A DNA stretch of 63,861 bases from Alphaproteobacteria bacterium (lineage in GTDB: Bacteria > Pseudomonadota > Alphaproteobacteria > GCA-2731375): positions 1 to 63,861 of the forward strand of contig JBGTSP010000002.1 of NCBI GenBank assembly GCA_041940205.1, in the 5' to 3' direction. Below the pieces are notes generated by a model. That model worked only from the letters and a program-made list of their open reading frames with translations, was not told the DNA's origin and did not search any database. This document shows positions 29,930 to 62,539 of this stretch, piece by piece (position 1 is the first letter of the stretch; the number at the start of each line of letters is the position of its first letter). A program made the translations under genes and the position numbers.

Positions 29930-29991
29930 CGCGCGCAGTTGCCGTTCACCGAGCTTGAACAGGGCCCCTCACCCTCCTCCGCGGGAAATGT

Positions 29992-31548: not shown

Positions 31549-31607
31549 GCTCGGCACCCCGATAAGCAACCATCGGTAGCTTAACGGCCGCCGACAGCGA
31601 GTGCAAT

Positions 31608-33914: not shown

Positions 33915-33952
33915 TGTGTCACCGAGCCAGGACCATCGCTGGTATCGGTTTT

Positions 33953-35392
33953 CTATTTTCCATTCGAGTCAGATATTTCGATCAGCCTCTTGTTCACCAG
34001 AACATGACCCAGAAAGATGAACATTTCCCTAATGAACGGATCCGAATAATACACCATTTTACCACTTTCCGGTTTAAACATAATGGCCATTGAACTGTTA
34101 TTGTTATTCAGATGTTTCTTAATCATATTGAATCCATCGAATGTCGGCATGCAATCAATTGAAGATTTGAGAAATTTTTCGACCATATTTCCATACTTGC
34201 CGTCAATTTTTGAAGCCCCGGTTGCGGATTCTAGAAAATTGTCGGCATCACATCCCTCAAGCTCAATTTTTTCTTTAGATTTTTTGTATTTATCAATTGT
34301 TTCTATTAGTGCATCGATGTTTATTTCGTGATATACTATTGATGAGGCGATCATTTGAATAGAAAGCAAATTATTTCTAAATAGTATGTTTTCAGTGTTT
34401 TTCTCCACGTACCGTTTGCACCGCGTCATCCAATCAGTTTTATCAATGAAGTTTATATATTCAAAGTCATTCGCACAATACTGCTGAACGAAAGGCAGTC
34501 GCTTGCCTGATTCTTCTTCCAAAAAAATATCAATTTTAATAATATCACGATAAGCAAACAATAAAAGCTGTGTTCGGCAGGTATTATCAGGATGAGTGTC
34601 GTAGGGGTTGCATGTTTGCAAGGCGCGCAGTTTCCTCTTTTCAAATATCTCCGCGTCTTGGTCGAGCCGTTCGTTTGCGGAAACTGCAGATTGGCCTTCT
34701 GTCTGCCTGGCCGTCGTCGCCGAGTGTGCTTCCGAATCAGAAGCTACTGTCGCGGCCGGTCTGTCCCTGAAAAGGTCACCGTTGGTAAACTCCAAGACGA
34801 AATACGCCGACACGACGATGATCACGACGCCGGCAAGAATGCCAATGGCACGTCCTTCTGTGAGCCATGGCGCCTGCAATTGTGCTGGCTCGCCGTGCTG
34901 AGGGTCCCGTTGTTCAGGGGGGCCGCTATCCTCCGTCGACGACGGCGTCCCAGGCTCCGGTGTCGCTCCTGCCGGATCGCGATCCGGTCGCGGCCGGTCA
35001 AGCATCGTTGCGTCTGGCGTGGCATGTCCGTCGGGCTCTTGCTTCAGCGCCGCGGCAACGGCATCGTGCAACCGATCCAGTCGTGACTTCAGTCCCTCAA
35101 GTTGACTTCTGCCATCAGCTTCGTTCCGATGAATGATCTTCTCGAGACCCTGAAGCTGATCGCTGAAGTGCGCTGTCTGTTCGTCGAGGCGCTTTGCGAG
35201 GTCGGTGTCGAGATGCTCGCTCTTGAAACGAAGCAACGCCGTGTCGAAGGCGTTCTGAACAAACCCCTGTGCTGAGCCCTGCCCGCTTCTGTCCAGCAGG
35301 TACAGAAAGTGATGCAACAGCCGGACCGACAACTCGTCGATATCCGGATCGCGGTTTGGATCACTGGCGTTCGGGTCGGTCTGGTCACTCAT
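33953..35392 (-). CDS. single-pass membrane protein: cytoplasmic coiled coil, TM, and an AT-rich-encoded Cys-containing ectodomain
   Basis: RBS GGGGAGA before the ATG at 35392. TM AIGILAGVVIIVVSAYFVL lies mid-protein. The C-terminal ~210 aa (33953-34600) are encoded by strikingly AT-rich DNA and are Asn/Lys/Ile-rich with several Cys. Confidence 0.55.
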   Translation of the reverse strand: MSDQTDPNASDPNRDPDIDELSVRLLHHFLYLLDRSGQGSAQGFVQNAFDTALLRFKSEHLDTDLAKRLDEQTAHFSDQLQGLEKIIHRNEADGRSQLEGLKSRLDRLHDAVAAALKQEPDGHATPDATMLDRPRPDRDPAGATPEPGTPSSTEDSGPPEQRDPQHGEPAQLQAPWLTEGRAIGILAGVVIIVVSAYFVLEFTNGDLFRDRPAATVASDSEAHSATTARQTEGQSAVSANERLDQDAEIFEKRKLRALQTCNPYDTHPDNTCRTQLLLFAYRDIIKIDIFLEEESGKRLPFVQQYCANDFEYINFIDKTDWMTRCKRYVEKNTENILFRNNLLSIQMIASSIVYHEINIDALIETIDKYKKSKEKIELEGCDADNFLESATGASKIDGKYGNMVEKFLKSSIDCMPTFDGFNMIKKHLNNNNSSMAIMFKPESGKMVYYSDPFIREMFIFLGHVLVNKRLIEISDSNGK

Positions 35393-35699: not shown

Positions 35700-36578
35700 A
35701 TGGGCACCGACGGTGACGGCGATTTGGAAGGCGCTGCAGGTCAGGTTCGCCGTGGGGAACATGAAGACATCGGAAGCTCCGACACGCTCGCAGCGACAAC
35801 GGATCCGCCTTCTCCTGAGCCGCGCGAAGATCAACCGGCGACGGAACCGTCCCGATCCGATAGCGAGGGGGCCGACCCGGCCGGAAGCAGGGGTGAATTC
35901 GGGTGTCCTCACGAGCCGCCCGCGGCGGCGGCGTTCAACTCTTCCGGTTCGCTGCAGGGAGAACTTTCCGCCTCCACCGACCCGACCGTTGCTGACGAAG
36001 GGAAACCGGCAGACGGTGAAAGCGGTTCGCAGGAGCCTGCGCATGAGGAGAATTCACTCCTTCCGGTTCTGACCAGGCTTGCGGCGCTCGAGAGCGATCT
36101 TGCGGCTTTTCGTGCTGCATTCGACGAGCGACTGCGAACCGATCGGTTCCGGGAAGAACAGGTGGCCAAGCTGCATGGAGAACTCCAGAACTACAAGACG
36201 GATTTCGTCGGCGCTCTGCTGGAGCCGGTGCTTGGCACTCTGGTCAATCTGCACATTGAAGCAAGCCGACTGATCGAGGCGTTACAGGTGGACGCGGATG
36301 CCTCGATCAGCAAGCGGGATGCCGCAGAGCTCCTTGACAGTTTTCGGGAGGATGTTCGATCGACTTTGCAGGTGCAGGGCGTCTCGGTCTTTCAGGACAG
36401 GGAGACCGGTGACACCTTCAATCCCCGTCGACAGCAGGTCCTGAACTCCATCGCCACGGACGACGTGACGCGGCACGGACTCATCGCGCGTCGTGTTCGT
36501 CCCGGGTTCGAGCGCGGCTCTTCCCTGCTTCAGAAAGAACGAGTCGATATCTATGTATCGCCAACAGTGAAGTCATGA
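35700..36578 (+). CDS. GrpE-like nucleotide-exchange-factor homologue with a long acidic/Pro-rich N-terminus
   Basis: Coiled-coil segment LESDLAAFRAAFDERLRTDRFREEQVAKLHGELQNYK. LLEPVLGTLVNLH matches the GrpE 'lLpvlDnler' position. C-terminal GDTFNPRRQQVL...GLIARRVRPGFERGSSLLQKERVDIYV matches GrpE 'fdP..HeA...G.v..v...GY....llR.a.V.V'. Confidence 0.6.
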   Translation: MGTDGDGDLEGAAGQVRRGEHEDIGSSDTLAATTDPPSPEPREDQPATEPSRSDSEGADPAGSRGEFGCPHEPPAAAAFNSSGSLQGELSASTDPTVADEGKPADGESGSQEPAHEENSLLPVLTRLAALESDLAAFRAAFDERLRTDRFREEQVAKLHGELQNYKTDFVGALLEPVLGTLVNLHIEASRLIEALQVDADASISKRDAAELLDSFREDVRSTLQVQGVSVFQDRETGDTFNPRRQQVLNSIATDDVTRHGLIARRVRPGFERGSSLLQKERVDIYVSPTVKS

Positions 36579-36599
36579 TGCATGGATTGTCATGATGCA
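36572..36599 (+). repeat. 11-bp direct repeat GTCATGATGCA x2 (6-nt spacer) spanning the grpE-like stop codon, followed by a T8 tract
   Basis: Copies at 36572-36582 and 36589-36599 are identical. T8 lies at 36603-36610. Only a weak 5-bp stem (TGCAT/ATGCA) can form. Confidence 0.85.
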
Positions 36600-36651
36600 C
36601 CGTTTTTTTTCATTATTGATCTCCTAATTTGTATGCAATTCCGGGGGTAAT

Positions 36652-38304
36652 ATGAACAAGATCTATGGAATTGACTTGGGAACCACCTACTCTTGCATTT
36701 CCTATTACAACGAGTTTGGCCAACAGGTAGTTATCAACAATGCAGAGGGAAGTGCGACCACGCCCTCGGTAGTTTTTTTCGAAAGCGCGGACAATTCCGT
36801 CGTTGGCCAGACGGCCAAGGATGCGGCGCCGGCGCACAGCGATCGTGTGGTCGAGACCGTAAAGCGGGCGATGGGTGACGAGGAATGGCGTTTCCCGGCC
36901 TTCGGGCAGGACTATCGCCCGGAAGAGGTTTCGGCGCTGATACTGAAGAAACTGGTCAACGACGCGAGGCTCGAGACCGGTGAAGACATCACGGATGTGG
37001 TGATCACCTGTCCGGCCTATTTCGGAAATGTCCAGCGTCAGGCGACCAAGCAGGCGGGAGAGATTGCCGGCCTTACCGTTCACTACATCATCACCGAACC
37101 GACCGCGGCGGCGATCGCCTACGGCATGGATCTTGGCGAGGACAAGAACGTCCTGGTCTACGACCTCGGCGGCGGGACCTTCGATGTCACGATCATCGCC
37201 ATCGAAGGCGAGGAAATCCGGGAGGTCGCCATTGGCGGTGACGACCGGCTCGGTGGCAAGAACTGGGACAACGCCATCGTGCAGTACCTGGTGGCCGAAT
37301 TCGAGGAACAGAAGGGTCAGCCGGCGGAGGCGTTGCTTGATGACCCGGAAACTTTCAGGGAACTGATGCTAAGCGCGGAACGCGCCAAAATCGCGCTGTC
37401 GAGCCGGATGGAGACGGAGACGCCGGTCCTCTTCGACATCGTACGTGCGCGCATCAAGCTGACGCGGGAGAAATTCGAGGAGATCACCGCCGACCTTCTG
37501 GCCCGGACCATCGAATACACGAAACAGGTCATGGAGAGAGGGCGGGAGAAGGGCGTCGACAGGATCGATACGGTGTTGCTGGTCGGTGGCTCGACCACGA
37601 TGCCTCAGGTTTCGGAGCGGCTGGAGGCGGAGTTTCCGGATATCGAGATCAAACGCCAGGATCCGCATCTGATCGTCGCGAAAGGAGCTGCCATCTACGG
37701 GTTCAAGCATCAACTCGACAGCGAACTGGAAGACGTGAAAGCGCAGATCACGGCAGACGGATCGGTTGATGCCGAGGCGGCGAACGAACAGGCGCTTGAC
37801 GAGATGTCCGATCGCTACGGTATGCCCAAGGACAGCCTGGCAGCGATCACGGCCAAGAAGATCGAGACCGTCACTTCGAAGAGCTTCGGCGTGATCTTCA
37901 CCGACGACGCGACCCGACAGGACTATGTCGTCAATCTGATCGAGGTCGACGACCGACTGCCGATCAAGGTGCATCAGGATGCCCAGACGCTGGATGATGA
38001 TCAGGGCCGGGTGACCATTCGCGTCGTCGAGAACCGTCAGAAGGTCAAGGGAGGAGGGCATCGCGTCGACGTTGGCGACTGCCGGCAGCTTGGCGAGGCT
38101 GAGCTGATTTTCGAGCATGCACTGCCGAAGGATTCGCCCTTGCGGGTGACTTTCAACATTTCCACTGACGGTCTGCTGAAGATGACGGGCGAGGACCTGA
38201 CCACGCATCGTGACGTCAGAGCGGAGTTCCGAACCGACAGCGTGATGAGCGAGGAGGATGTGCAGCAGGCGAGGAGCCGCCAGTCAGGCATGACCGTCAG
38301 CTAG
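36652..38304 (+). CDS. Hsp70/DnaK-family ATPase, short (550 aa, no full C-terminal lid)
   Basis: IYGIDLGTTYSCISY (phosphate 1), VITCPAYF, ITEPTAAAIAYG, VLVYDLGGGTFDVTI (phosphate 2), and VLLVGGSTTMPQV (adenosine motif). Confidence 0.85.
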   Translation: MNKIYGIDLGTTYSCISYYNEFGQQVVINNAEGSATTPSVVFFESADNSVVGQTAKDAAPAHSDRVVETVKRAMGDEEWRFPAFGQDYRPEEVSALILKKLVNDARLETGEDITDVVITCPAYFGNVQRQATKQAGEIAGLTVHYIITEPTAAAIAYGMDLGEDKNVLVYDLGGGTFDVTIIAIEGEEIREVAIGGDDRLGGKNWDNAIVQYLVAEFEEQKGQPAEALLDDPETFRELMLSAERAKIALSSRMETETPVLFDIVRARIKLTREKFEEITADLLARTIEYTKQVMERGREKGVDRIDTVLLVGGSTTMPQVSERLEAEFPDIEIKRQDPHLIVAKGAAIYGFKHQLDSELEDVKAQITADGSVDAEAANEQALDEMSDRYGMPKDSLAAITAKKIETVTSKSFGVIFTDDATRQDYVVNLIEVDDRLPIKVHQDAQTLDDDQGRVTIRVVENRQKVKGGGHRVDVGDCRQLGEAELIFEHALPKDSPLRVTFNISTDGLLKMTGEDLTTHRDVRAEFRTDSVMSEEDVQQARSRQSGMTVS

Positions 38305-38338
38305 TTCCCGATTCGACGGGCAAGAAGGGGAGCGGCCG

Positions 38339-40450
38339 TTGAAACCGCCGGTAGGCATCGATCTGGGCACGACGAACTGTGCCGTTGCAACGGTCGATGC
38401 CTATGGACGCGGCGTCATCGTTCCCAACCGGGACGGCGCTCGGTTTACGCCGTCTGTCATTCACTTCGGCGATAGCGGAATCGAGGTCGGCGATGCCGCC
38501 AGAGAGCGGCTCGCATTCGGCGATCGGCGCACACTTGCACAATTCAAGCGGCTCATGGGCGATCGGTCGCCGCTGATCACGGCAGACGGCGTCGACCACG
38601 AGCCGACCTCCCTGTCCGCATTGCTGCTCTCCAGGCTCAAGGAAGACGCCGAACACCGGCTGGCGTGCCGGATCGACGAAGCGGTGATCACGGTGCCCGC
38701 CTATTTCAGGGAACGGGAACGAACGGCCACCATCGAAGCTGCGCACATGGCCGGGTTGAACGTCAGTCGGCTGATCAACGAACCGACGGCCGCCGCCATC
38801 GCCTACGGCCAGTCCGAGGCCCGGCCCAATGGCCACCTGTTGGTCTACGACCTTGGCGGCGGAACGTTCGACGTCACCCTGCTGGATCTGGCCGACGACA
38901 TCCGGATCCTGGGTTCGGAGGGGGATCACCAGCTTGGTGGAAAGGACTTTGATGCCGCCCTTTACTCCCTCTTGGCGCATCGTTTCGAAGACGAGCACGG
39001 CATGGAGATCGCGAGCGATTTCGAGGCCCAGATCGAACTGCTGGCCCGTGCCGAGAGCGCGAAGCATGCCCTGTCAGAGCGCCAGAGCGTGCGGGTTTCC
39101 ATGTTGGCGCACGGTATTCGCGCGGCCTATGAGATAGCTCGGGAGGCCTTCGAGGAGGCTTCGAGCGATCATCTGAACCGCACCATCGCACTGGTGGACA
39201 AGGTCCTCCTCGATCACGGCATGCAGGACAGCGATATCGATGCGGTGCTGACCGTCGGTGGAGCCTCACGCATGCCAATGGTGAGCCGGTTCCTTGCCCG
39301 GAGGTTCGGCCGCGCCCCTGTGCGTGGCATTGATGTCGACGAGGCGGTCGCGCTTGGGGCGGCGCTGGAGGCGCATCGCCTGCAGCAGTCTCGCCGGTTG
39401 ACTGTCAGCGATGGCGGACCAGGTCCGGGAACGGCCATGCGCCCGGTCGTCGATGTGACCAATCACAGCCTGGGGATGATTGCCGTCACCCCGGACGCTC
39501 TAGCCTTCGTGAATTCCGTGATCGTTCCCAAAAGCCGTTCGCTGCCCTGTCGCGAAGTGCGCCGGTTTCGTCATGAATTCAGTCCCGGTCCGCTCGAGCG
39601 GGAAGTGCTGGAGATCTTCCTTACCCAGGGTGGTTCGGACATGGCCGCGCCGGATACGGTGTCCTATCTGGGGCGATACGTGGTGGATGGTACCGAATTG
39701 AAGGCGACGGGCCCTCAAGAGGTGGATGTCGCCTACGGGTACAACGAAAACGGCACCGTCGACGTCACCGCGACACTGGTTGCGGACGGCACGAACCTTG
39801 CCCTTGTGGCTCGGCCTCTGCCGGCGGATGTACCGGATCGTTTCCTTCAGCCGCCACAAAAGATCATTTCCGGACAATCCATGACCATCTATCTGGTCTT
39901 CGACCTGTCGGGCTCGATGGACGGCGAACCTCTTGCAGAAGCCAAGCGGTCGGCGCTGGCGTTCCTGCAGCATACCGATCTGGACGGCGCACGGATCGGT
40001 TTGATCTCGGTTGCCGACCACGCCCGGATCAAGCTGAAGGCCTGCGAGAAACCGGAGCGCATCCGCCGGGCCATTGCGGCGATGGCGATCGGAGAGGTGG
40101 GCATTTCAAATTCGGCCCATCCGTTCGATGCCTTGCTTTCCGTGCTCGATGATGTCGAGGGCCCGCGATTGGCTATCGTCTTGGCCGACGGCATCTGGAG
40201 CGATCAGGCGGGAGCGATCGACCGTGCCCGTGCCTGCCATGCTGCCGGCATTGAGATCGTCGCGCTGGGTTTTGGCGAGGCGGATTCGGAATTCCTCGAG
40301 CAGATCGCTTCTCTCGAAAATGCAGCCATCTTCACCGAACTTTCCGCCCTGCAGACGACCTTCTCGACCATCGCGCAGATCATTGCCGACAGTGGCGGCA
40401 GACTGAGTTCCGGCCAGGCCCGCGCGGCGCTGCGGGCGTTGCGGCACTGA
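38339..40450 (+). CDS. Hsp70-family ATPase fused to a C-terminal von Willebrand factor A (vWA) domain
   Basis: VGIDLGTTNCAVA, VITVPAYF, INEPTAAAIAYG, LLVYDLGGGTFDVTLL and LTVGGASRMPMV. The C-terminal ~190 aa carry the MIDAS motif IYLVFDLSGSMDG plus IVLADGIWSD and AGIEIVALGFG. TTG start. Confidence 0.8.
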   Translation: MKPPVGIDLGTTNCAVATVDAYGRGVIVPNRDGARFTPSVIHFGDSGIEVGDAARERLAFGDRRTLAQFKRLMGDRSPLITADGVDHEPTSLSALLLSRLKEDAEHRLACRIDEAVITVPAYFRERERTATIEAAHMAGLNVSRLINEPTAAAIAYGQSEARPNGHLLVYDLGGGTFDVTLLDLADDIRILGSEGDHQLGGKDFDAALYSLLAHRFEDEHGMEIASDFEAQIELLARAESAKHALSERQSVRVSMLAHGIRAAYEIAREAFEEASSDHLNRTIALVDKVLLDHGMQDSDIDAVLTVGGASRMPMVSRFLARRFGRAPVRGIDVDEAVALGAALEAHRLQQSRRLTVSDGGPGPGTAMRPVVDVTNHSLGMIAVTPDALAFVNSVIVPKSRSLPCREVRRFRHEFSPGPLEREVLEIFLTQGGSDMAAPDTVSYLGRYVVDGTELKATGPQEVDVAYGYNENGTVDVTATLVADGTNLALVARPLPADVPDRFLQPPQKIISGQSMTIYLVFDLSGSMDGEPLAEAKRSALAFLQHTDLDGARIGLISVADHARIKLKACEKPERIRRAIAAMAIGEVGISNSAHPFDALLSVLDDVEGPRLAIVLADGIWSDQAGAIDRARACHAAGIEIVALGFGEADSEFLEQIASLENAAIFTELSALQTTFSTIAQIIADSGGRLSSGQARAALRALRH

Positions 40451-40462
40451 GCGTCGACGATC

Positions 40463-43400
40463 ATGGGCGAGGAAGACAATCTCTTCATTCTCCTGGATCT
40501 TGATCCAAAGTGTCGGGATCCAAGCGTTGTGCAGGACACCATCCGTTCGAAGCGGATGGCCTGGAAACGAGAGGAGAGCCAGGGCGCGAATTCGGCCGCG
40601 GCATCCGTGCGCCTTGAGAAGCTGAGACTTCTCGAGGGCAAGGCCGTTTCCGCGGAAGCGCTGACGACGGAAGCGAAGGCGGCAAGCCGGATCCTGAGAA
40701 AGAGGCGGAACGCCGCACTGAAGAAACTTGATCCGCACATTGCGCTGTTGAAGGTGCACGGGTTCTTTTCGCCCCAACAGATCGCCAATATCGAGCGTGA
40801 TCTTGACGGTGTTCTATCGCGTGAAACGATCGAGAAGCAACTGAAGAGCGCCGGTCTTCACGAAAAGAAAGAGAGAACTGAACCGGAGGAAGATCCTTGG
40901 GCGGATAGGCCAAGACTCGACCGCGCCTATGCGGACCGGATTCGCCAGCAGCTCGACGCGATCGACAAGGCCACTCTTTACGAGGCTCTGGATTTGCCAG
41001 CGTCCACGTCTTCAGGCGAACTGCTGAAACGGGCCAGCGAACTCTACCGCGAGATCCAGGACCGCGGTGATACGGGCAACCGCATTCAGGCCAGTCTGAA
41101 GGTGCTGGCGGGGCAGGCGGTCGACATCTTCGCGGATGATGACAAGAGGCGGCGATACGATCACAGCATCGCCTTTGAGATTTTCGAGGCCTTCCGGCCG
41201 CTCATCGAAACGGCCGGCGCTAAGGGATACCTGACGCGCGCGGACCACGACGCCCTGTTGCGCCAGATGACGGTAGCGGGATGCGATGCCGGTGATGCGG
41301 AGGCGTTCGTGCGCCATAGGGCTGTCAAACGGGGCTGGCACATTGAAGATGCGCAACAGCGAGACGCGCGCCAGATCGATATCTGGCGCTGTCCGTGCGG
41401 GGAGTTGCAGGTTGGAGATGAGCGCATGCAATGCCGCAGTTGCGACCGCGATCTGCATGTGTCCTGCCCGAGTTGTGGTCATAGCTGTCGTATCGACCTG
41501 CACCAGTGTCCCCGATGCGGCTTCGAAACCGGCAATCAGGTTCGACTGGAACGGCTGGTTGACCGAGCACGAAGTCTCGAGCAGTCGGACGATCTCTCCG
41601 GTGCAGCGGCGAGCTTCCGCGAGGCCTTGTCCTTGTGGCCGAATTGGCCGCCTGCCGCACAGGGTCTTTCGCGGGTCGAAGCACTTGCACAGCGGCGCAG
41701 CGAGTTTCTCGCGAAAGTCCGTGCATTGCGCAACGACAACAAACTGTTTGCAGTCGAGACACTGCTGGCTACGGAATCACGTGACGGCGGAGGAGAAGCC
41801 CTGGAGAAGCTTGCAAATCAGAACCGGAAGGATCTGGAACGCGCGCGCCAACTGCTGATCGAGGCAAGGCAGACGGCGAACAGTGGGCGTCAGGCGAAGG
41901 CCATTGCGCTTTGCCGGGATGCGTTGAGCATTGCGGGGGACTACGGGGAAGCCGCCGCGTTGATTCAACGTCTTCCCCCGCCGGCCCCGTCGCGTGTCGT
42001 TGTCGAACGCAATGGCCACGGGTTCAGGCTGCATTGGGATCCTGTCCGCTCTCATGAACGGCACACCTATCGCATAATGCGGAAGATCGGCAGTGCCATC
42101 CACAGTGGTCAGGACGGTCAGGAGATCGGCACGACGGCAATGGCGCGGTTCGACGACGGCAACGCGCCGGTGGGAGTACCCGTTTACTATGGCGTCTTTT
42201 CGGTTCGCGATGGCGTGATCTCCGGTCAGGCTGCCCTGGTGGGGCCCGTACTTCGAACTGAGAGTGTCTCGAACCTGGTCTCGGACGCGGACGCGACCTC
42301 GATCGCATTGAGATGGAAGAAACCTGCGGGCACGGTTCAGATCAAGGTCTGGCGACGCCTCAACACCGAACCCGAGGCCGCGGGAGACGGCAAACAGGTA
42401 AGAGCCGGTCTGGAGGGGGCCGTCGATCAGCCACTGCGGACCGGGAATGTCTATGGCTACCGGGTTGTTCCCTATTTTCGCGATCCCGAGGATGCAGAAG
42501 GGGTGATTGCGGGTCCGGGTGCGACGATCCTTACCAGGACACAGCAACGGCCTGAACCCGTCATGGATCTGACCCTGCAGGGCAAGACTGCCCATGTCCT
42601 CGACATTGCCTTCACCGAACCCGAGCGTGGTAACCTGCATCTCTATATGTGCGGGCGTGGGCAGGACCCCGTCGTCGGCAGACGTATGCCGGCAGTCGAT
42701 GTCGGGACAATCGGGACACGCATCGCAGATCGGGAACTGAGGGCACGAAAGGTATCGTTGACCCAGTCGGGAAGCCAACTTCTTGTGCCGGTCACCATTT
42801 TGGAAGACCAGGCCGTGATCGGCCAGGGGCTGCTGGTTCAGCATTTTGAGGCCGCCGCAAACTTTGATTGCGATCCGACGGCTGGTGGCTTCGTGTTCTA
42901 CTGGCGCTGGCCGGACGGTGCTCACGCCGCGCGTCTTTCGCTATCCAGTGACCGGATTCCGAAGAGTCCCAACGATCCGGCAGCCGAGCAACATACGATG
43001 CTGCGCAAGGGCGATCGTGCGCGCATGGAGATCGTGCGCAGCGAACCGGGCGAGTTCTTTATTCTTCTGTCCTTTGCCGCGTCGCTTTCTGGCCCGTTTC
43101 TGCCCAATCTCGGTCGTCAGATCCGGAACAGTCTGCCCATTCGCATCACCTACGAACTGGTGCTGCACACACGGCGGTTTCCGCGTGCCTTGCTAAGGGC
43201 CGCGCTGCGAGTGACCGCGGAGAACGATGTCGTTGTGCGGGGTCTGGTCGTGGTCGCGAGCGCCGACCGTATTCCGTTGCGAATCGAGGATGGAGACCGG
43301 TTGCTCCGCGTGGACGCTCTTGAACTGAAGCGGAATCGGCCCTGCGATCTCGATCTGGATGTATCGCGTCTGTCCCGGGGTCAGACGATACGACTGTTTC

Positions 43401-43465
43401 TGCATCATGCATTCGAACATGATCCGGTACGGCTGCAACAACTCGGATCGACACGCGTATCATAG
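40463..43465 (+). CDS. 1000-aa multidomain protein: J-domain-like helices (no HPD seen), Cys4 zinc ribbons, TPR-like helices, and FN3/Ig-like beta region
   Basis: LYEALDLPASTSSGELLKRASELYREIQ...DDDKRRRYD has J-domain helix I/IV character, but no HPD tripeptide occurs anywhere. WRCPCGE...CRSCDRDLHVSCPSCGH...HQCPRCG forms zinc ribbons. AASFREALSLWPNWPPAAQGL is TPR-like. FRLHWDP..., IALRWKKPAG and YGYRVVPYF are FN3-like. Confidence 0.5.
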   Translation: MGEEDNLFILLDLDPKCRDPSVVQDTIRSKRMAWKREESQGANSAAASVRLEKLRLLEGKAVSAEALTTEAKAASRILRKRRNAALKKLDPHIALLKVHGFFSPQQIANIERDLDGVLSRETIEKQLKSAGLHEKKERTEPEEDPWADRPRLDRAYADRIRQQLDAIDKATLYEALDLPASTSSGELLKRASELYREIQDRGDTGNRIQASLKVLAGQAVDIFADDDKRRRYDHSIAFEIFEAFRPLIETAGAKGYLTRADHDALLRQMTVAGCDAGDAEAFVRHRAVKRGWHIEDAQQRDARQIDIWRCPCGELQVGDERMQCRSCDRDLHVSCPSCGHSCRIDLHQCPRCGFETGNQVRLERLVDRARSLEQSDDLSGAAASFREALSLWPNWPPAAQGLSRVEALAQRRSEFLAKVRALRNDNKLFAVETLLATESRDGGGEALEKLANQNRKDLERARQLLIEARQTANSGRQAKAIALCRDALSIAGDYGEAAALIQRLPPPAPSRVVVERNGHGFRLHWDPVRSHERHTYRIMRKIGSAIHSGQDGQEIGTTAMARFDDGNAPVGVPVYYGVFSVRDGVISGQAALVGPVLRTESVSNLVSDADATSIALRWKKPAGTVQIKVWRRLNTEPEAAGDGKQVRAGLEGAVDQPLRTGNVYGYRVVPYFRDPEDAEGVIAGPGATILTRTQQRPEPVMDLTLQGKTAHVLDIAFTEPERGNLHLYMCGRGQDPVVGRRMPAVDVGTIGTRIADRELRARKVSLTQSGSQLLVPVTILEDQAVIGQGLLVQHFEAAANFDCDPTAGGFVFYWRWPDGAHAARLSLSSDRIPKSPNDPAAEQHTMLRKGDRARMEIVRSEPGEFFILLSFAASLSGPFLPNLGRQIRNSLPIRITYELVLHTRRFPRALLRAALRVTAENDVVVRGLVVVASADRIPLRIEDGDRLLRVDALELKRNRPCDLDLDVSRLSRGQTIRLFLHHAFEHDPVRLQQLGSTRVS

Positions 43466-43481
43466 GAGGCGACGGCCGATC

Positions 43482-44711
43482 ATGTTACGACATGCTGGAC
43501 GCTGGGGTCGAAAGATCAAGGGAACGCTGCGGACCTCGATGAAGAACGAGGTCTGTCCCAACTGCTTTCGCGAAATCAGGCTCGGACAGGCGCCGTTTCG
43601 GTGTATTTCCCCACCGCAAGCGTGCCGACCGGAACCGGATCCCGTGTTGTCGGAACACTGGTCGGTTGGTGTTCCGGTTGGCAGGGTGATCCCCCCGACC
43701 GGCCAATTCGAACTAACAGCAGAATGCCTGGAGTGCCATACCGCCAGTGGGCAGCGGATCTGCCCGGTGTGCCACGCCGACCTGCCAAGAACGATCGGCG
43801 AGTATGACAACTTTGTCATTGCGATCGTCGGTCTGAAGGAAGTGGGAAAATCGAACTTCATCACCGTACTGATCGAAACGTTGCGTCAGGATGGTAGAAG
43901 ACAGTTTGGACTACTTGTCTCTGCCGAAAACGAATATACTCAGAATAGATTTGAGAACGAGTTTCGCAAACCATTGTATGATCAAATGCAATCACTCGAT
44001 GTAACGCAAACAGCGTTTATAAATAAAGATATTAAAAGACCTCTTGTTTTCAATATACGAAATGTAGATTCGAATAGTGGTATTGCATTAAGAAAGAACA
44101 GATTTTCAACTCTTTCCTTTTTTGATTCCGCGGGTGAAGATCTTGAATCCGAAGCGACAATGTCAGCCGTCAATCGTTACATATTCAAGGCGGATGGTAT
44201 TGTCCTGTTGATCGATCCGCTGCAATTTCCTCTCATGCGGCGTGAGCTGGAAGACAAGATCCGCCTGCCCGAACCCTCGGCGCCGGTTGATAAACTTGTA
44301 AACAGCATCGCCCGCTTGGTCCGTCAGGGCCAGGAGTTGAGCGAGAAGACCCGGATCGAAACGCCGATCGCTGCAACTCTCTCCAAGACTGATGTGCTGG
44401 AAGGACTGCATCGGATCATTGATCCCGGTACACCAATGCTGCAGGCCTCAGATCATTCAAAAGGTTTCGACCGGCAGGATTTCGAGAACGTCAGTGCCGA
44501 TGTGGAAGAATTGATCGGCCGGCTTGGCGGTCATCCGTTGGTCAATGAACTTCATGCGAACTTCAGGCATGTCGGCTTCTTTGCCTCCTCGTCGTTCGGC
44601 GCGCCCCCCGACGAAAACATGAACATCCAGCGTCTTTCACCCCGGCGAGTGGTGGACCCGTTCATCTGGCTCATGACCCAAAAGGGCATTTTGTCGAACA
44701 AGGGGCCGTAG
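43482..44711 (+). CDS. double Zn-ribbon plus P-loop GTPase (paralogue B)
   Basis: CPNCF...C and CLECH...CPVCH ribbons. G1 IAIVGLKEVGKSNFI, G3 FFDSAGED, G4-like ATLSKTD. AGGAGG lies 12 nt before the ATG at 43482. The G1-to-G3 segment is AT-rich. Confidence 0.7.
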   Translation: MLRHAGRWGRKIKGTLRTSMKNEVCPNCFREIRLGQAPFRCISPPQACRPEPDPVLSEHWSVGVPVGRVIPPTGQFELTAECLECHTASGQRICPVCHADLPRTIGEYDNFVIAIVGLKEVGKSNFITVLIETLRQDGRRQFGLLVSAENEYTQNRFENEFRKPLYDQMQSLDVTQTAFINKDIKRPLVFNIRNVDSNSGIALRKNRFSTLSFFDSAGEDLESEATMSAVNRYIFKADGIVLLIDPLQFPLMRRELEDKIRLPEPSAPVDKLVNSIARLVRQGQELSEKTRIETPIAATLSKTDVLEGLHRIIDPGTPMLQASDHSKGFDRQDFENVSADVEELIGRLGGHPLVNELHANFRHVGFFASSSFGAPPDENMNIQRLSPRRVVDPFIWLMTQKGILSNKGP

Positions 44712-44714
44712 AAA

Positions 44715-47372
44715 GTGGCTACTGTCGATCAACTGCACTACACGTCCTGTCGTCGAGGCTATTTCGGGGGAGACGGTTTTCAGGTCCGGACCCTGTCGGA
44801 CGGTCTGGATCGTGCCCACAGCAACGAGATCGTCGCGCATTGCGGTTATCTCCGTCCGAAACAGCGAGGCGAGTCGGAGTATCCCGTCGCCTATAGAGGG
44901 TACCCGCTTTCGGACGGTCGGATAGTGCTCACCTCGACGGTGTATGCCGGCCTCGACTACTCGGGTCGCGAAGGTAATTGCTTTGCGCACTCTCTGGTCT
45001 TCGAACGCGACTGTGCACCCCATCCCCTGCTCAGCCTGTCGCGATGGACGGGCTGGGTCCGTCAACTGAACGCGGATGACGACACGGATAACGCGCCTTC
45101 ACCCCTGCCTCGCCTGGAATGCGATATCTTCTCGAGCCACTCCGCCTTCCTGCATGGCGAGGTCCGGAATTTTCTGGCTTCTCCCGATCGGCAACGGCAT
45201 CTGCGCGATGCGCTGGTCGCAGTTCTGTGCAGAGGCATTCTGGGGCGCAGCATCGTCTTTCGTGACACACCGGAACACAATCACCTCTGGGTCGGCGCAA
45301 CGCTATCCTGCCTGCCCGTGCACCTTGCTCTGCCGCTGACGTGGTCGACCTATGCCCACAACGAGAGGGAACTGTGCGATATCAATGCAACAGTATCGGG
45401 ATCGACACTGCGTTTCGATGAGACCGATCACAAGTTCCTGTACTTTGCGATCGATATTGAAGGCGGTGTCTGCTCGTCGTTCACGGGTTACGAAGGTGAG
45501 AGACACGCGAGTGCCAGCTTCTTTGCCGAGTTTGCGGTGCGCTCGATCGTCTCGTCTCCAGAACGGCTTGCAGAATTCACCTGCTTCCTGAGCAGAAATT
45601 TCATCGACCTGCCTCTCGGGCCCGATCTGGGACTCTTGTGCGCCCTGTGGCAAGGCACCGACGACGCGATCAGGTGGGCTACGCCCGAAATCGAAAGACT
45701 GTCTGCGATTGTGCGCGATCACCTTTCTCCCGAAGCCGACGATGCTCTCGTGAATACGGTGGGAGATCTGGTGCGGCGGCTTGCGCGTTCTGGCGGGACG
45801 AAACAAGCCGATATTGCCGTCCATCTCCTGGTTGCGGCTGCTCAGGCGGTGGACAGCGGCATGGCGAAGCAAATGACGGCGACGGAGCTGGTTCGCCTGT
45901 TGCTGGATCGGCTCCACTCTGGTGATCGGGAGCTCCTGATCCGCCATGTCGAGGTGATTACCGGCCTTCTGTCGTCGAACCGGGGCTGGCGGGAATCCCT
46001 TGAGGAAATCCTGTCAGGCGACGAGTTGATTGACGATCTCTGCAATCTAATTGCCAGTCTGGAAGCAGATCAGGTCCGGCCGATTCTCGATCTGGTGCAG
46101 GCATTCCCGAGGGATGCGGCGGTCTGGGAATACCTGTTCCCGGCGATTGCCAGCAGGTTTCTTGTGTTGCAACCGTCGCAGGATAAGGCGGACGAGATCC
46201 TGACAGTTCTCTGCGAGGAGACCGACGGTTGCGTCGAGGTGTCGGCACACGTTTTCAGGGAGCTGGCGGATCGTCCGCAAAAACAGTCACAGTTCGTTCT
46301 ATCGTTGAACGGCCGGTTGAGACAGATCGCGCCAGCACGATCGGCTCACATTCGAGCACGTCTGGTCGACGTTGGTGAGGAGGCGCTGGCATTGGCGGAG
46401 TTCCTGGCCGATCTGGAGCGCCAGGAGGATCCGGTTCAAGCGCTTGAGCTGTTTCTCGAACGACCGAAACCAGATGCCGTGGCAGAACATCGCTGGCGGA
46501 AGTTCAAGGTCGAGGGGCTTTCCGAAACCCTCCGCCGAAGTGATGAGAGATTTATCAAGCCCTTGTGTCTGGCGGCCGCTCGGACCGAGACCTGGAACGA
46601 ACTTGATGCCGTCATCCGAGCCGAAATCGTGCGACGGATCGACAGACAGCTCTCGGGGAAGCGAACCAGCGCCGCGGACCACGTGTTTGCCACGATGATC
46701 GACCAGATGGCGGCCTCGTTGAGCATCGATCGCGCTCGCTTGAATGCTGCCTACATCCTTTTGTCCAGACATATGATCGAAGATCCCTTCAGCTTCGATC
46801 TGGACATGGCGGAACAGGTGCTGTGTTCCCGAACTGTTGCAGAACGCAACCGATTCATGGAACTGGCATTCGATCGGTTTGTCTTCGATGTCGACGATGA
46901 CCCGATTCCTCATCTCGATTTCTGCATTCGCCTTGGTGAACGCAAGCGAATTCTGGCGCTGTTTGCACGGAGCGTGCGCAGGCGGGCTAGGACGGGGCCA
47001 GGGAACCTGATAACTGTGCTCTCCACCGTGATCGACGATGCCGGTACCGGCGAATGGTCAGCGTTCGTTGCTTCGGAACTTGAACCGCTTGTGGAGTGTT
47101 GCGCCGAGGCATTGTCGTCGAGCTATCGACGCGATGAACTTCCCGATCTGTTCGCGCGACTGGAGCCTCATTTCAGCGACGGCCTGACATCGGAAAAATT
47201 CCAGCTTGTTCAGCAGTCGACCGAGCGCCTTGCAGAACCTCTCGTCACCCGAGTGAGTCGCGCGGTCCAGCAGTTCAGGATCTGGCCAGCAAGGCGAGGT
47301 GTCCAACCAAAGCCTGTGGCGGGAAAGCAGCACCCGCAACGACAGGGCCAGCGGCCATCACGTGATGAGTGA
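44715..47372 (+). CDS. 885-aa helical partner protein of GTPase B (paralogue of 31608-33914)
   Basis: GTG start 3 nt after the GTPase stop, with AAGGGG upstream. The N-terminal QLHYTSCRRGYFGGDGFQVRT...GREGNCFAHSLVF resembles N-terminal domains I recall being described for GTPase-associated partner proteins. The rest is helical repeats. Confidence 0.5.
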   Translation: MATVDQLHYTSCRRGYFGGDGFQVRTLSDGLDRAHSNEIVAHCGYLRPKQRGESEYPVAYRGYPLSDGRIVLTSTVYAGLDYSGREGNCFAHSLVFERDCAPHPLLSLSRWTGWVRQLNADDDTDNAPSPLPRLECDIFSSHSAFLHGEVRNFLASPDRQRHLRDALVAVLCRGILGRSIVFRDTPEHNHLWVGATLSCLPVHLALPLTWSTYAHNERELCDINATVSGSTLRFDETDHKFLYFAIDIEGGVCSSFTGYEGERHASASFFAEFAVRSIVSSPERLAEFTCFLSRNFIDLPLGPDLGLLCALWQGTDDAIRWATPEIERLSAIVRDHLSPEADDALVNTVGDLVRRLARSGGTKQADIAVHLLVAAAQAVDSGMAKQMTATELVRLLLDRLHSGDRELLIRHVEVITGLLSSNRGWRESLEEILSGDELIDDLCNLIASLEADQVRPILDLVQAFPRDAAVWEYLFPAIASRFLVLQPSQDKADEILTVLCEETDGCVEVSAHVFRELADRPQKQSQFVLSLNGRLRQIAPARSAHIRARLVDVGEEALALAEFLADLERQEDPVQALELFLERPKPDAVAEHRWRKFKVEGLSETLRRSDERFIKPLCLAAARTETWNELDAVIRAEIVRRIDRQLSGKRTSAADHVFATMIDQMAASLSIDRARLNAAYILLSRHMIEDPFSFDLDMAEQVLCSRTVAERNRFMELAFDRFVFDVDDDPIPHLDFCIRLGERKRILALFARSVRRRARTGPGNLITVLSTVIDDAGTGEWSAFVASELEPLVECCAEALSSSYRRDELPDLFARLEPHFSDGLTSEKFQLVQQSTERLAEPLVTRVSRAVQQFRIWPARRGVQPKPVAGKQHPQRQGQRPSRDE

Positions 47373-47559
47373 CAATTCCGAAGACAGGGGGGCTGTCGCA
47401 ATCGTCCTGCTGCTGCTTGTGATCGTCGTGGCCGGAATGCTGATCTCTGTGGCGACCGTGGCTGTTCTCGCGATCGGGGCCACCGGGTCCATCTTTGGGG
47501 CGATCCATGCGGCTGGCAGCTACTATCAGGCTTTCCGTAAGAACGTTCGCTACGAGTAG
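47365..47559 (+). CDS. small two-TM membrane protein
   Basis: The ATG at 47365 overlaps the upstream stop by 8 nt. 64 aa with AVAIVLLLLVIVVAGMLISVATVAVLAIGATGSIFGAI. The longer ORF start at 47299 lies inside the upstream gene. Confidence 0.5.
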   Translation: MSDNSEDRGAVAIVLLLLVIVVAGMLISVATVAVLAIGATGSIFGAIHAAGSYYQAFRKNVRYE

Positions 47560-47565
47560 TCAACC

Positions 47566-48951
47566 ATGTCGGATGAGACGCACCCTGCCATCGAGAGCTA
47601 TTTTTTCGGCAAGGGATACCGCGATCTCAAACGTACTGTTGCCGCCGCTTCGCATGCCAACTATGTCTATGCTAAATCCAATATTTCCGAAGGAATTGCA
47701 CTCTTTGAAGAAGGTGGTTGGAATATATTTATAACTGTATTTAGATTTTTCGTTTCTGCATCAGTATTATTATTTGGAAGTATATTTATTATTGTTTTTT
47801 CTTTTATTCATTCACTTGTTCTTATCGTGGTTTTTTCATCAGTATATGTAGTTTTTGCAATTTTTTATTTGATAGAATCGACAATTTATCTTGTAAAGAG
47901 AATCAGTGTTCGTTGTCCTCACTGTCATCGCGATTCGGCACTCCCTGTTTATCTTTGCGACACGTGTGGTCGACGACATCACCATCTTCGTCCGTCCCGA
48001 TTCGGGATTTTCTTCCACCGCTGCCGGTGCGGCAAACGATTGCCTTGCACGATGTTCTCGAACCGGAGTCGGCTTCCCAGTCGCTGTCGTCATTGTGATC
48101 GTCCACTGAATGCGAAGCATCTGTCTGGTCGGAAGCTGCTTGTTCCGGTCTATGGAGGGCCCGCTGTCGGCAAGACCGCATTCATCAATGCCTGTATCGC
48201 CAAGACGTTCACTGATCTTCAAGCTCGAGGTTTGCATGCTGAATTTCTGGATCCGACCACTGAGCAGGAGAACGAAGAAATTGTACAGCACATGAAACAA
48301 GGAAGAATGCCAGATAAAACAAATGACAGAGTACCACGTACAATCAATTTTCAAATCACAGACAATAAAAAACGGTTATGGATGGTATATTTTTACGATG
48401 AAGCGGGTGAAGTTCTGCAAGGTCTAGGCGGGATTCAGGGCCATGACTTTCTTGACAGCGCTTCGGGACTGATTTTTCTGATAGACCCTTTCTCGTTGCC
48501 AGAGGTTCCAAAGATGTACGGGCAAGATTTCCGGCGGTTGCAGAAAATGGTCAAGCCTTCGGGACTTGCTCCGGATCTCGCATTTGAACGACTGCTACTT
48601 AATTTGGAAACGAGTTTCGGTGCTCCTCGGAGTAAAAAAATCGATATTCCAATAGTTATTGTTCTTACGAAAATTGATGCTGGGAGACTTGAGAGCATTG
48701 TTGGAGATGAGGCGCTACCGCTTGGCCTGATAAATCAAAATGAACGGGATACAGCCCGCAATGAACTCATTCGCCGTCAGTTAATTGCATGGGGAGCCCA
48801 ACGTTTGATTGATCTTGTTGAGATTAGATTTAACAATTTTTCATATTTTAGTGTATCTGCGATTGCCAAAAACAAGGGAGATAATATTGGACGAAGAATA
48901 TCAGACCCAATTATGTGGATATTGTCTCAATATATTGCAGACATGAAATAA
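47566..48951 (+). CDS. membrane-anchored double Zn-ribbon plus P-loop GTPase (paralogue C), AT-rich
   Basis: Two or three N-terminal TM helices (FFVSASVLLFGSIFIIVFSF, LIVVFSSVYVVFAIFYLI). CPHCH...CDTCG and RCRCG...CRHCD ribbons. G1 VYGGPAVGKTAFI, G3 YFYDEAGE, ASGLIFLIDP, G4 IVLTKID. Confidence 0.7.
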   Translation: MSDETHPAIESYFFGKGYRDLKRTVAAASHANYVYAKSNISEGIALFEEGGWNIFITVFRFFVSASVLLFGSIFIIVFSFIHSLVLIVVFSSVYVVFAIFYLIESTIYLVKRISVRCPHCHRDSALPVYLCDTCGRRHHHLRPSRFGIFFHRCRCGKRLPCTMFSNRSRLPSRCRHCDRPLNAKHLSGRKLLVPVYGGPAVGKTAFINACIAKTFTDLQARGLHAEFLDPTTEQENEEIVQHMKQGRMPDKTNDRVPRTINFQITDNKKRLWMVYFYDEAGEVLQGLGGIQGHDFLDSASGLIFLIDPFSLPEVPKMYGQDFRRLQKMVKPSGLAPDLAFERLLLNLETSFGAPRSKKIDIPIVIVLTKIDAGRLESIVGDEALPLGLINQNERDTARNELIRRQLIAWGAQRLIDLVEIRFNNFSYFSVSAIAKNKGDNIGRRISDPIMWILSQYIADMK

Positions 48952-49134
48952 ATTCTACAAATTATACTGAATATTCAATAATGAAATATTTGCAAACTCA
49001 TTATTACTTTAACGTCACAATTCATCTACTTCAATTTCAGTATATTGAGAAAAATTTTTAGATTCATTCTGGTTGGGAATGGATCGGACTCTTTGCGAGA
49101 AACGACGAAATTTCTCTCTATTTTAGCTGTGATC

Positions 49135-51172: not shown

Positions 51173-51346
51173 CCCGTTCCCCCGATCCGCGCGCCACGGG
51201 AGGCTGTCCCGGCGGCGGCATTTGAAAAAAATCTGCAACGCCGGCAAGATTAATATTGAAACTCGTATTCAACAAGTGGATAAATGACGGGCGCGCGCCG
51301 GCCGGGACGGCTGCCGTCCGCCGGTCGCGCACGGGAGGGAACGGCC

Positions 51347-52180: not shown

Positions 52181-52256
52181 GGGCTTCCCGGCCCGGTCGC
52201 GCCGGCGCCCCCGCGGCCGGACACAAGGCATCCGTTTTCCCCAATAAGGAGCATTC

Positions 52257-53614: not shown

Positions 53615-53618
53615 CGGC

Positions 53619-55342: not shown

Positions 55343-55447
55343 CCCGGCCCTCTTTCTTCTCCGCGCGACTTCGTCGCGAAACATTCATCTGTTGAATAGA
55401 TTACCCGGATCGAGGCGCCGGCGAAAGCGGCCGGCCGCTGATCACTG

Positions 55448-56347: not shown

Positions 56348-56463
56348 GCGGTGTTCTCCCAGCGGCGATTCCCGGCGCATCGTGGGTCCCGGTGCCGTCC
56401 GGCGCAATGCCGGCGGCCGGGCCGCGCCGGCGACGGATCCGCAAGCGGGCTCGTGAACGCGCC

Positions 56464-59962: not shown

Positions 59963-60146
59963 GGCGTCCGGCCGCGGCGGATCAGCAGACCGCGGCCGGG
60001 ACCCGGCGTTCCGGGGAGAACCCGAAGGACGGACGGGGACGGCGAACGGCAACGGTCATGACGCGGCCCGGAGTATGCTGCCGTCATGGCCGGCGCGGAA
60101 GCCGGCATATGAACGGGTTTCGGCGCGCCGCTGTCAGCGACTGCTG

Positions 60147-61182: not shown

Positions 61183-61309
61183 GTTCGTTCCATTCTTTCA
61201 TGGTGCTCCCGTCTGATTCCCCGCTTTATCCATCTTCGGGCATGAATAGGGTGGCGGGTATCCGGCACTGCCGATGCCGGCCGACCTGATTGCAAACCGG
61301 GAGGATCCC

Positions 61310-62487: not shown

Positions 62488-62539
62488 GGGGAGGCGTGCC
62501 GAACCGGGCGCGTTTTCTCTCCTCCGAGACCGTTCCGCC

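Follow-up and report, generated by a model that had tools for sequence, protein, structure and literature searches.

The stretch of alphaproteobacterial DNA analysed here, 64 kb in length and referred to below as the window, encodes on its forward strand (35700-43465) a GrpE-type protein, two Hsp70 paralogues, the second of which is fused to a von Willebrand factor A (vWA) domain, and a 1000-amino acid (aa) protein with J-like helices. A preliminary description of the sequence covered these four genes and took them for a free-standing chaperone set. We find that they make up the first half of a DO-GTPase/GAP1-N2 operon of seven genes, the unit continuing to position 48951 with a DO-GTPase, a GAP1-N2 protein, and a second DO-GTPase. 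Based on the domains that it encodes, the operon is very likely a GAP1-N2-type DO-GTPase conflict system of the Hsp70/GrpE theme. Kaur, Burroughs, Iyer, and Aravind (eLife 2020; PMC7159879) defined the families involved and predicted GTPase-centric conflict systems computationally. As an explanation for the locus as a whole, we consider it likely that this is an Hsp70/GrpE-theme GAP1-N2 conflict operon residing in a defence island. The features of the operon are as follows.

35700..36578, + strand: predicted divergent GrpE, 292 aa, with a 120-aa acidic/Pro-rich N-terminal extension (ATG at 35700 with GGAGG upstream; homologues and family profile)
36652..38304, + strand: Hsp70A, 550 aa, with nucleotide-binding domain (NBD), linker insert of about 55 aa, beta part of the substrate-binding domain (SBD-beta), no lid, and a conserved C-terminal tail (PF00012, 2.8e-101)
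38339..40450, + strand: Hsp70B-vWA fusion, 703 aa, with NBD and SBD-beta (aa 4-480) followed by vWA (PF00012, 5.7e-101; PF00092, 5.3e-15)
39887..40447, + strand: vWA domain of Hsp70B (aa 517-703), carrying DLSGS (aa 522) and, further downstream, LADGIWS (PF00092 and motifs)
40463..43465, + strand: 1000-aa scaffold, with two predicted J-fold domains lacking the His-Pro-Asp (HPD) tripeptide, a double zinc ribbon, TPR, and an FN3-like array (family search; AlphaFold pLDDT 88.1)
40475..40687, + strand: J-like domain 1, aa ~5-75 (family profile against 2dmx, 2.4e-4; Foldseek matches to J domains)
40700..40867, + strand: helical unit resembling an EF-hand, located between the J-like domains, aa ~80-135 (calmodulin match of the family profile, 1.5e-5)
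40922..41215, + strand: J-like domain 2, aa ~154-251, without HPD (family profile against 6iws, 3.8e-4; predicted helices)
41375..41527, + strand: double zinc ribbon, CPC..CRSC..CPSC..CPRC (Cys pairs; weak Pfam DZR match, 0.054)
41528..41968, + strand: helical repeats of TPR-like type, aa 356-502 (match of the family profile to consensus TPR, 3.6e-15; model helices)
41984..43462, + strand: about four to five FN3-like beta-sandwich domains, aa 508-1000 (family profile, 1.5e-9; Foldseek, 1.4e-13)
43482..44711, + strand: DO-GTPase with two N-terminal zinc ribbons, ~409 aa (PF19993, 7.2e-8)
44715..47372, + strand: GAP1 protein with N2-type N-terminal domain, 885 aa (PF20013, 3.9e-25)
47566..48951, + strand: second DO-GTPase, 461 aa, carrying zinc ribbons and a hydrophobic, putatively membrane-spanning segment near the N-terminus (PF19993, 6.5e-11)

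The GTPase and GAP1 genes and the published systems

The four previously described open reading frames (ORFs) were all recovered at their positions, and the interval 35700-48951 contains seven co-directional ORFs in total. The gaps between them are 73, 34, 12, 16, 3, and 193 nt when the start of the first GTPase is set at 43482, and the co-directional, tightly spaced genes probably constitute a single operon. The longest ORF of the first GTPase begins at 43359 and would share 107 nt with the 3' end of the scaffold gene; the ATG at 43482 is the likelier start because it is preceded by GGAGG and yields a protein of 409 aa, which matches the length of its homologues (398-424 aa). The GAP1 gene begins 3 nt past the stop codon of this GTPase. 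A promoter and terminator scan of the operon returned signals no better than those from shuffled sequence.

Both GTPases score above the PF19993 cut-off of 27 bits (32.8 bits for the first, 42.8 for the second), and they are paralogous to each other (2.7e-8). Each has CxxC pairs N-terminal to the P-loop and the motif GxxxxGK[ST], together with D-S-A-G-E in the first protein and D-E-A-G-E in the second; the corresponding segments read GLKEVGKS, FFDSAGE, and SKTD in the first GTPase and GGPAVGKT, YDEAGE, and TKID in the second. A crude hydropathy scan, which does not resolve the number of transmembrane helices, detected a single extended hydrophobic stretch in the second GTPase, at aa 51-111, and no transmembrane segment at its C-terminus. 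The GAP1 protein matches GAP1-N2 with 88.9 bits against a cut-off of 24, and its match to GAP1-M is weak (4.4e-4, 20.9 bits against 24).

These components correspond closely to those set out in the main text of Kaur et al. The DO-GTPase of their scheme is a TRAFAC GTPase with a Glu in Walker B and usually with N-terminal zinc ribbons, the GAP1-N2 protein is encoded shortly after a DO-GTPase, and a 'second theme' of the GAP1-N2 systems accounts for approximately 14% of such neighbourhoods. This theme combines Hsp70 with GrpE, in some cases adds another, atypical Hsp70, and includes a protein whose FNIII repeats are joined to either a DnaJ domain or TPR. A protein with rapidly evolving FNIII repeats is the hallmark third component of GAP1-N2 systems, and where two GTPases occur, one of them carries transmembrane helices, four N-terminal and one C-terminal. 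The window operon has a counterpart for each element of this published theme: the zinc ribbon-DO-GTPase, the GAP1-N2 protein, the second GTPase with its putative membrane segment, the FNIII-DnaJ/TPR protein, Hsp70, GrpE, and the second atypical Hsp70. The scaffold carries both the DnaJ-type fold, predicted in two copies, and TPR. The taxonomic range differs, the published theme being found mainly in actinobacteria and firmicutes, whereas the relatives described below come mostly from Acidobacteriota, plus a single alphaproteobacterium and a single actinomycete. The main text of the paper makes no mention of the Hsp70-vWA fusion, of the tandem J fold, or of the loss of HPD throughout the family, and one of its supplements has no Hsp70, GrpE, or DnaJ entries. 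Three features seem to go beyond that main text: the conserved Hsp70-vWA fusion, the tandem HPD-less J fold with loss of the Hsp70 contact residue R167, and the occurrence of the GrpE/Hsp70A/J-like trio with CHAT/caspase genes.

The chaperone components and their interface

The 292-aa protein encoded by the first gene gave no match on its own in Pfam, NCBIfam, or PDB sequences. Seven homologues, 33-43% identical to it, were recovered, and all seven match PF01025 (best 1.6e-9). The profile built from this family matches the structures 3a6m (5e-5) and 8gb3 (3e-3) from the long dimerisation helix through the C-terminal beta domain. The protein had been called only 'GrpE-like'; by its family profile it is a genuine but divergent GrpE, and the members of the subfamily share the signature RVRPGFE...LLQKE. 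The acidic, proline-rich N-terminus noted previously is as described, with 27 acidic residues, 6 basic residues, and 13 prolines among its 120 aa. This tail is restricted to the window copy, the homologues being 212-253 aa long, and because it is not conserved among them we rejected the acidic tail as a general ligand of the vWA domain.

Both Hsp70s match the Pfam HSP70 model at approximately 1e-101, and a motif scan located DLGTT, EPTAAA, DLGGGTFD, and GGxxxxP in each, as had been reported. The phosphate-binding motifs and the lysine equivalent to K70 are conserved in all Hsp70 relatives compared. Alignment of Hsp70A with the DnaK of M. tuberculosis gives two blocks, the NBD (aa 3-361) and SBD-beta (aa 421-539); approximately 55 residues are inserted in the inter-domain linker, and the sequence ends where lid helix A makes its first turn. 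For Hsp70B, the alignment is with the Geobacillus DnaK structure 2v7y over aa 4-480, which corresponds to NBD plus SBD-beta, and the vWA domain follows. By these alignments both Hsp70s are lid-less, and in Hsp70B the vWA takes the position of the lid, in agreement with the preliminary description. The Pfam VWA match covers aa 517-667. The DxSxS motif of the metal ion-dependent adhesion site (MIDAS) is kept in 11 of 11 full-length relatives. The segment LADGIWS supplies the MIDAS Asp, and its pattern, xADGxWS, is matched in 6 of the same 11. The region of the MIDAS Thr carries a conserved Asn, the position of the Thr ligand not being assignable from the alignment.

Neither Hsp70 is a housekeeping DnaK or HscA, because the NCBIfam scores amount to less than half of the curated cut-offs. 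For the DnaK models Hsp70A and Hsp70B score 357 and 319 bits against 648 (NF001413) and 344 and 309 bits against 823 (TIGR02350), and for the HscA equivalog 274 and 293 bits against 708.55. The set is thus dedicated rather than housekeeping, as had been proposed. An HscA/HscB iron-sulfur chaperone pair was also considered and rejected, since the scores fall below cut-off and no isc or HscB gene is present among the ORFs of the operon and flanks that were scanned.

The C-terminal tail of Hsp70A (38230-38304) is itself conserved among relatives, with the pattern S-I/V-M-S-x-E-E...A-K/R-S-R-N-L-x-L-x-V-S/A. By analogy with the EEVD peptide clamped by Hop and CHIP, it may serve as a docking peptide for the TPR of the scaffold. 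The tail is also conserved in loci of the CHAT type described below, in which the J-like protein is without a TPR region and a TPR-CHAT protein is encoded nearby.

Direct searches with the N-terminus of the 1000-aa scaffold (Pfam, NCBIfam, PDB sequences) yielded nothing useful, and the protein did not match the DnaJ-family Pfam models even at E<=10. A word-indexed search for homologues yielded no more than 3-4 relatives even when run with a profile of 50 sequences, and an exhaustive HMMER search of representatives with residues 1-305 was used instead. This search recovered 495 clusters at E<=1e-3, 245 of them at E<=1e-10, with most of the 495 encoding proteins of approximately 1000 aa. Positions 5-70 of the resulting family profile match the J domain of DNAJB8 (2dmx), and positions 165-232 match that of DNAJA3/Tid1 (6iws); the helices of J-like domain 2 are predicted at 184-201, 207-222, and 226-251. 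An AlphaFold model of residues 1-245 has a mean pLDDT of 94.7. When this model was compared with the PDB by Foldseek, the top 22 matches were all J domains, with probabilities of 0.92-0.99, rmsd of 2.0-4.8 A, and target-normalised TM-scores of 0.19-0.70 (0.45-0.70 against isolated J-domain entries). Note that the Foldseek E-values are approximately 1, as expected for a 63-residue helical domain; the J-fold assignment is made because the matches are uniform and are joined by independent sequence-profile matches, rather than on these E-values. Judged from the profiles and the model, the scaffold N-terminus carries two J-fold domains, each with the helix II/III hairpin. The preliminary description had correctly noted J-domain-like helices without HPD, and had counted one such domain where we find two. 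It had also allowed that the GrpE and J-like regions might prove to be unrelated coiled coils; the profile matches are instead to GrpE and to J domains.

The HPD tripeptide is absent from the 1000-aa protein and from all seven proteins of the operon. At the position aligned with HPD of DNAJB8, the window protein has K-R-E and the family consensus S-R-D. None of 149 family representatives has HPD within the J-like segments, the one incidental HPD lying outside them at residue 268, and none of seven scaffold homologues from related loci has HPD anywhere. Because HPD is absent across the family, we refer to these domains as J-like; by sequence they have the J fold and are not canonical J domains, and this holds family-wide.

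Between the two J-like domains, positions 81-136 of the family profile match calmodulin. A strand plus two-helix unit similar to this EF-hand-like unit is also observed after J-like domain 2, at aa ~255-291 (41225-41335). With a similar small unit following each J-like domain, the scaffold N-terminus looks like a duplication of a J-like domain plus a small helical unit. The remainder of the protein contains the Cys4 ribbons, TPR, and FN3 segments that were recognised previously, each now confirmed by profile and structure model. The Cys pairs at aa 310, 324, 335, and 349 are nearly invariant in the family, and the full-length AlphaFold model places helices at 356-502, over which the family profile matches consensus TPR structures. 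The FN3 array matches fibronectin 6mfa by family profile and four-domain fibronectin fragments by Foldseek, and a precomputed match to PF25832 (Fn3_SaeA_2nd) falls in the same region. Scaffold relatives are 17-29% identical overall, and the FN3/TPR part, at 22-29% among relatives, diverges quickly.

The loss of HPD has a counterpart on the Hsp70 side. In DnaK the HPD loop is received by a site made up of R167, N170, and T173, as established by suppressor work with DnaK R167H and DnaJ D35N and by the DnaK-J-domain structure 5NRO. At the R167 position, Arg is found in none of 21 Hsp70A-type relatives (16 Tyr, 4 Glu, 1 Gln), and the N170 position has Pro in 17 of them and Asn in 4. Among 12 Hsp70B-type relatives, R167 is Arg in 3, Gln in 8, and Lys in 1, and N170 is Asn in 9 and Ser in 3. 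The window Hsp70A has Tyr and Thr at the two positions, and the window Hsp70B has Arg and Asn. Given the loss of HPD on the J side together with the loss of contact residues on the Hsp70 side, the J-Hsp70 interface is probably private and insulated from the housekeeping DnaJ/DnaK network rather than decayed.

This machinery shares with the housekeeping DnaK-DnaJ-GrpE system the presence of three protein superfamilies in one operon, the ATPase motifs, the K70-equivalent Lys, and a GrpE-type exchange factor, but it lacks the helical lid, HPD, and the Cys-rich and C-terminal client-binding domains of DnaJ, and R167 is lost. A J-like protein without HPD is known from mitochondria, where Pam16/Tim16 keeps the J fold; proteins of this kind bind or regulate an Hsp70 machine but do not stimulate the ATPase. 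The action of Pam16 depends on Pam18, a true J protein, as its partner. Unlike that system, the operon encodes no HPD-bearing J protein, and its two J-like domains stand in tandem on a 1000-aa sensor-type scaffold. The MoxR-vWA pairs and ternary conflict systems treated in the main text of Kaur et al. likewise join an NTP-driven remodelling ATPase to a peptide-binding vWA (MIDAS) adaptor; here the ATPase is an Hsp70 and not an AAA+ MoxR, and the vWA is fused in cis. A MoxR-vWA ternary system was rejected as a candidate, no AAA+/MoxR match being obtained in the operon or in the flanking proteins scanned. Finally, bNACHT25 senses phage by way of host DnaJ (Conte et al., PLoS Biol 2025; PMC12169576) and so also uses Hsp70/J-protein machinery as part of phage detection. 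That system borrows the housekeeping DnaJ, whereas the present operon has its own rewired chaperones and no NACHT protein.

Conservation of the gene order and genomic context

Public genomes and metagenomes were probed with the GrpE subfamily motif RVRPGFE, and contigs encoding homologues were also examined. A recurring order was observed: GrpE, Hsp70A (552-558 aa), Hsp70B-vWA (692-714 aa), the ~1000-aa protein, the zinc ribbon-GTPase, and GAP1-N2. The full order is present in three metagenome-assembled genomes (MAGs) of Acidobacteriota (L008, L010, L011), in a Phaeospirillum MAG (L006), and in four metagenome contigs (L001, L015, L017, L019). It is present in part in a Trebonia MAG (L013), as far as the contig limit, and in JGI 3300045391, as far as the ~1000-aa protein. 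The arrangement thus recurs in Acidobacteriota, Alphaproteobacteria, Actinomycetota, and metagenomes, and the gene for the Hsp70-vWA fusion follows Hsp70A in 14 related gene contexts.

A different arrangement was found in four loci (L005, L007, L012, L018), where a ~690-aa protein with a J-like N-terminus directly follows Hsp70A. In two of these (L005, 3598-15332; L007, 3609-15278) the order is TPR-CHAT (PF12770, 1e-68), a ~445-aa protein, a caspase-like Peptidase_C14, and then GrpE, Hsp70A, and the ~690-aa J-like protein. This cassette lacks Hsp70B-vWA, GTPase, and GAP1. The trio of GrpE, Hsp70A, and J-like protein is therefore found in both GTPase and CHAT/caspase settings, as a cassette combined with different conflict-system cores.

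Some further observations were made on individual loci. One related locus (L004) has CHAT/NACHT and VWA neighbours. In two of the Acidobacteriota MAGs (L010, 12068-17352; L011, 10541-17361 and 18149-20487) Hsp70, scaffold, GTPase, or GAP1 genes are split into overlapping ORFs, which could represent either assembly frameshifts or real pseudogenisation. Upstream of GrpE, JGI 3300045391 encodes a TIR_2 protein (707 aa), an Hsp70 fragment (130 aa), and, in divergent orientation, a VWA protein (505 aa), which is defence-type company.

The window itself shows a marked change in composition. The GC fraction is 0.53-0.65 over approximately 46 kb (~4000-50000), compared with 0.70-0.75 beyond 50 kb (50001-63861), and the low-GC region fits a horizontally acquired island in a high-GC genome. 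Upstream of the GrpE operon lies a defence-type gene block (1829-16109, + strand), which includes the following genes.

1829-4897, + strand: ResIII/Type III REase-like helicase
4894-6762, + strand: GmrSD_N/DUF262 protein (PDC-M55C, 3.6e-25)
6762-9617, + strand: Type III DNA methyltransferase (PADLOC, 1343 bits)
10400-13030, + strand: BrxH/SngC-like DEAD helicase
13189-15252, + strand: NERD-UvrD/GajB-like helicase

The region is a defence island, and it supports a conflict role for the operon by association only.

Several other features of the window were recorded. Divergent from the GrpE operon, the minus strand at 27980-35392 encodes a 525-aa protein with an N-terminal zinc ribbon, a P-loop (GFANSGKTW), and a weak PF19993 match (6.8e-5), along with 768-aa and 479-aa proteins without matches and a 649-aa TPR/transmembrane protein; the block is possibly another GTPase-centric system, and a very divergent one. 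Two large ORFs at 21721-27962 (minus strand), whose calls overlap by approximately 570 nt, have no Pfam match at 1e-3; one has an SxxK motif (GSVVKAF) like that of penicillin-binding proteins (PBPs) in its C-terminal half, and the other, of 1121 aa, is rich in hydrophobic transmembrane-like segments. A tRNA-Arg(gcg) called by ARAGORN at 14510-14580 (+ strand) lies inside the UvrD-like helicase ORF and is probably a false positive. A 353-aa ORF at 49045-50106 (+ strand), rich in Ala, Gly, Arg, and Val and without a family match, resembles an antisense artefact of a high-GC gene located at 49135-50184 on the opposite strand.

Proposed mechanism and alternative explanations

A working mechanism can be outlined that follows and extends the hypothesis of Kaur et al., with functional steps that are all conjectural; taken as a whole we hold the chain tentatively and regard it as on balance doubtful. 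The 1000-aa protein would act as scaffold and sensor, its variable TPR/FN3 array binding a protein derived from an invader or from stress. Its two J-fold domains would dock the two Hsp70 paralogues, a docking that may not by itself trigger ATP hydrolysis. The lid-less Hsp70s, with catalytic residues intact, would bind clients through SBD-beta with fast exchange, and the vWA metal-site domain of Hsp70B would provide a second, acidic-residue-dependent grip. The dedicated GrpE would reset the ADP state, and the ATP cycle would drive assembly, remodelling, or multimerisation of the complex. The pair of zinc-ribbon GTPases, one of them presumably membrane-anchored, would form with GAP1 a GTP-timed switch that sets a threshold and signals to a membrane output. 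This output step is a guess because no toxic effector domain is recognisable in the operon. The preliminary description had suggested a 'capture-and-remodel or switch' module, a conjecture that agrees with the hypothesis given in the main text of Kaur et al.

A more specific version of this scheme is that an orthogonal Hsp70 cycle with a rewired J interface (HPD lost, and R167/N170 lost in Hsp70A and mostly in Hsp70B) would be insulated from the housekeeping network and serve as an immune receptor, in which the FN3/TPR scaffold would present phage proteins, either structural or chaperone-dependent, whose capture by the lid-less SBD-beta and the vWA metal site would gate DO-GTPase/GAP1. We know of no bacterial defence system that runs on its own Hsp70 cycle, and we give this version a low probability. 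Many phages rely on host DnaK, DnaJ, and GrpE or manipulate them. A guard or decoy arrangement is a further, attractive sub-hypothesis of the conflict-operon explanation, by which the HPD-less J folds and lid-less Hsp70s would mimic host chaperones, trap phage proteins or folding intermediates, and fire the GTPase switch. Consistent with such mimicry, members of the family have kept the J fold but not the catalytic HPD, and the Hsp70s keep SBD-beta and the ATPase motifs; there is precedent in the need of bNACHT25 for host DnaJ to detect the MS2 coat protein (PMC12169576), and decoy-type effectors are proposed for these systems in the main text of Kaur et al. The arrangement is purely inferential, however, and the missing R167 contact speaks against the Hsp70s being faithful mimics of DnaK, so that we consider it unlikely.

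Several points weigh against reading the locus as an Hsp70/GrpE-theme conflict operon. The J-like regions and GrpE are both assigned without a direct Pfam match, the former from family profiles (~3e-4) and structure prediction and the latter from a family profile with a modest E-value (5e-5). The second Hsp70 of the theme, as given in the main text of Kaur et al., is without the peptide-binding domain, whereas here both Hsp70s keep SBD-beta and are without the lid only. The 193-nt gap precedes the last GTPase gene, so that co-transcription of this gene is predicted less firmly from the spacing. No toxic effector domain is present among those recognisable in the operon, and PADLOC covers none of the seven proteins with a model, its sole match being a weak one to PDC-M61B (5e-5). 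A literature search for experiments on DO-GTPase/GAP1 systems found only the 2020 prediction. No relatives were found on viral contigs or annotated plasmids, which may be listed with these points and is nevertheless neutral as to a role in defence.

Among the alternatives, the least tenable is that the genes are the housekeeping DnaK, DnaJ, and GrpE of the organism, which has, within the 64 kb available, nothing beyond family membership in its favour; it is effectively refuted by DnaK equivalog scores far below their cut-offs, by the lack of a lid, of HPD, and of any match to the DnaJ-family Pfam models, and by the location in an island of foreign GC together with DO-GTPase and GAP1 genes in the same operon. 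A potential concern is whether the chaperone genes instead form a specialised, free-standing 'capture-and-remodel' module acting on a dedicated client, with the GTPase and GAP1 genes unrelated to it. The trio does occur without Hsp70B-vWA, GTPases, and GAP1 in L005, L007, L012, and L018, as a separable cassette would. In L005 and L007, however, the trio is directly beside another conflict-type core of TPR-CHAT and caspase genes, and in 9 contexts with a long enough contig, the window included, GTPase and GAP1-N2 follow with small or overlapping gaps. In L022 the 3.2 kb that follow the scaffold gene yielded nothing. The FN3 array of the scaffold is the hallmark third component of GAP1-N2 systems. 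We find this alternative very improbable. It is also quite improbable that the operon has a non-defence role in the regulated assembly of a cytoskeleton-like or envelope-associated complex, for instance when multicellular or filamentous bacteria develop or face envelope stress. The predicted membrane anchor of one GTPase, the absence of a toxin-type effector, and the nearby PBP-like and multi-transmembrane genes on the opposite strand would fit such a role, but the operon sits within a low-GC island dense with restriction-modification and defence-type genes and is patchily distributed across phyla. In addition, the FN3/TPR part is fast to diverge, and the flanking genes differ between loci. 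This combination is typical of conflict systems.

The Hsp70/GrpE-theme conflict operon remains the explanation that we favour, and the locus provides a compact, complete example of it, with seven genes in approximately 13 kb and all catalytic motifs intact. The paired loss of HPD and R167 predicts insulation from host DnaJ and DnaK, along with some other means of coupling J-fold binding to ATP hydrolysis. The occurrence of the trio with CHAT/caspase genes suggests that it is a reusable chaperone cassette in bacterial conflict systems. If the orthogonal receptor version were true, it would represent the first Hsp70-based pattern-recognition machine in bacteria, and the cassette could also serve CHAT/caspase outputs.

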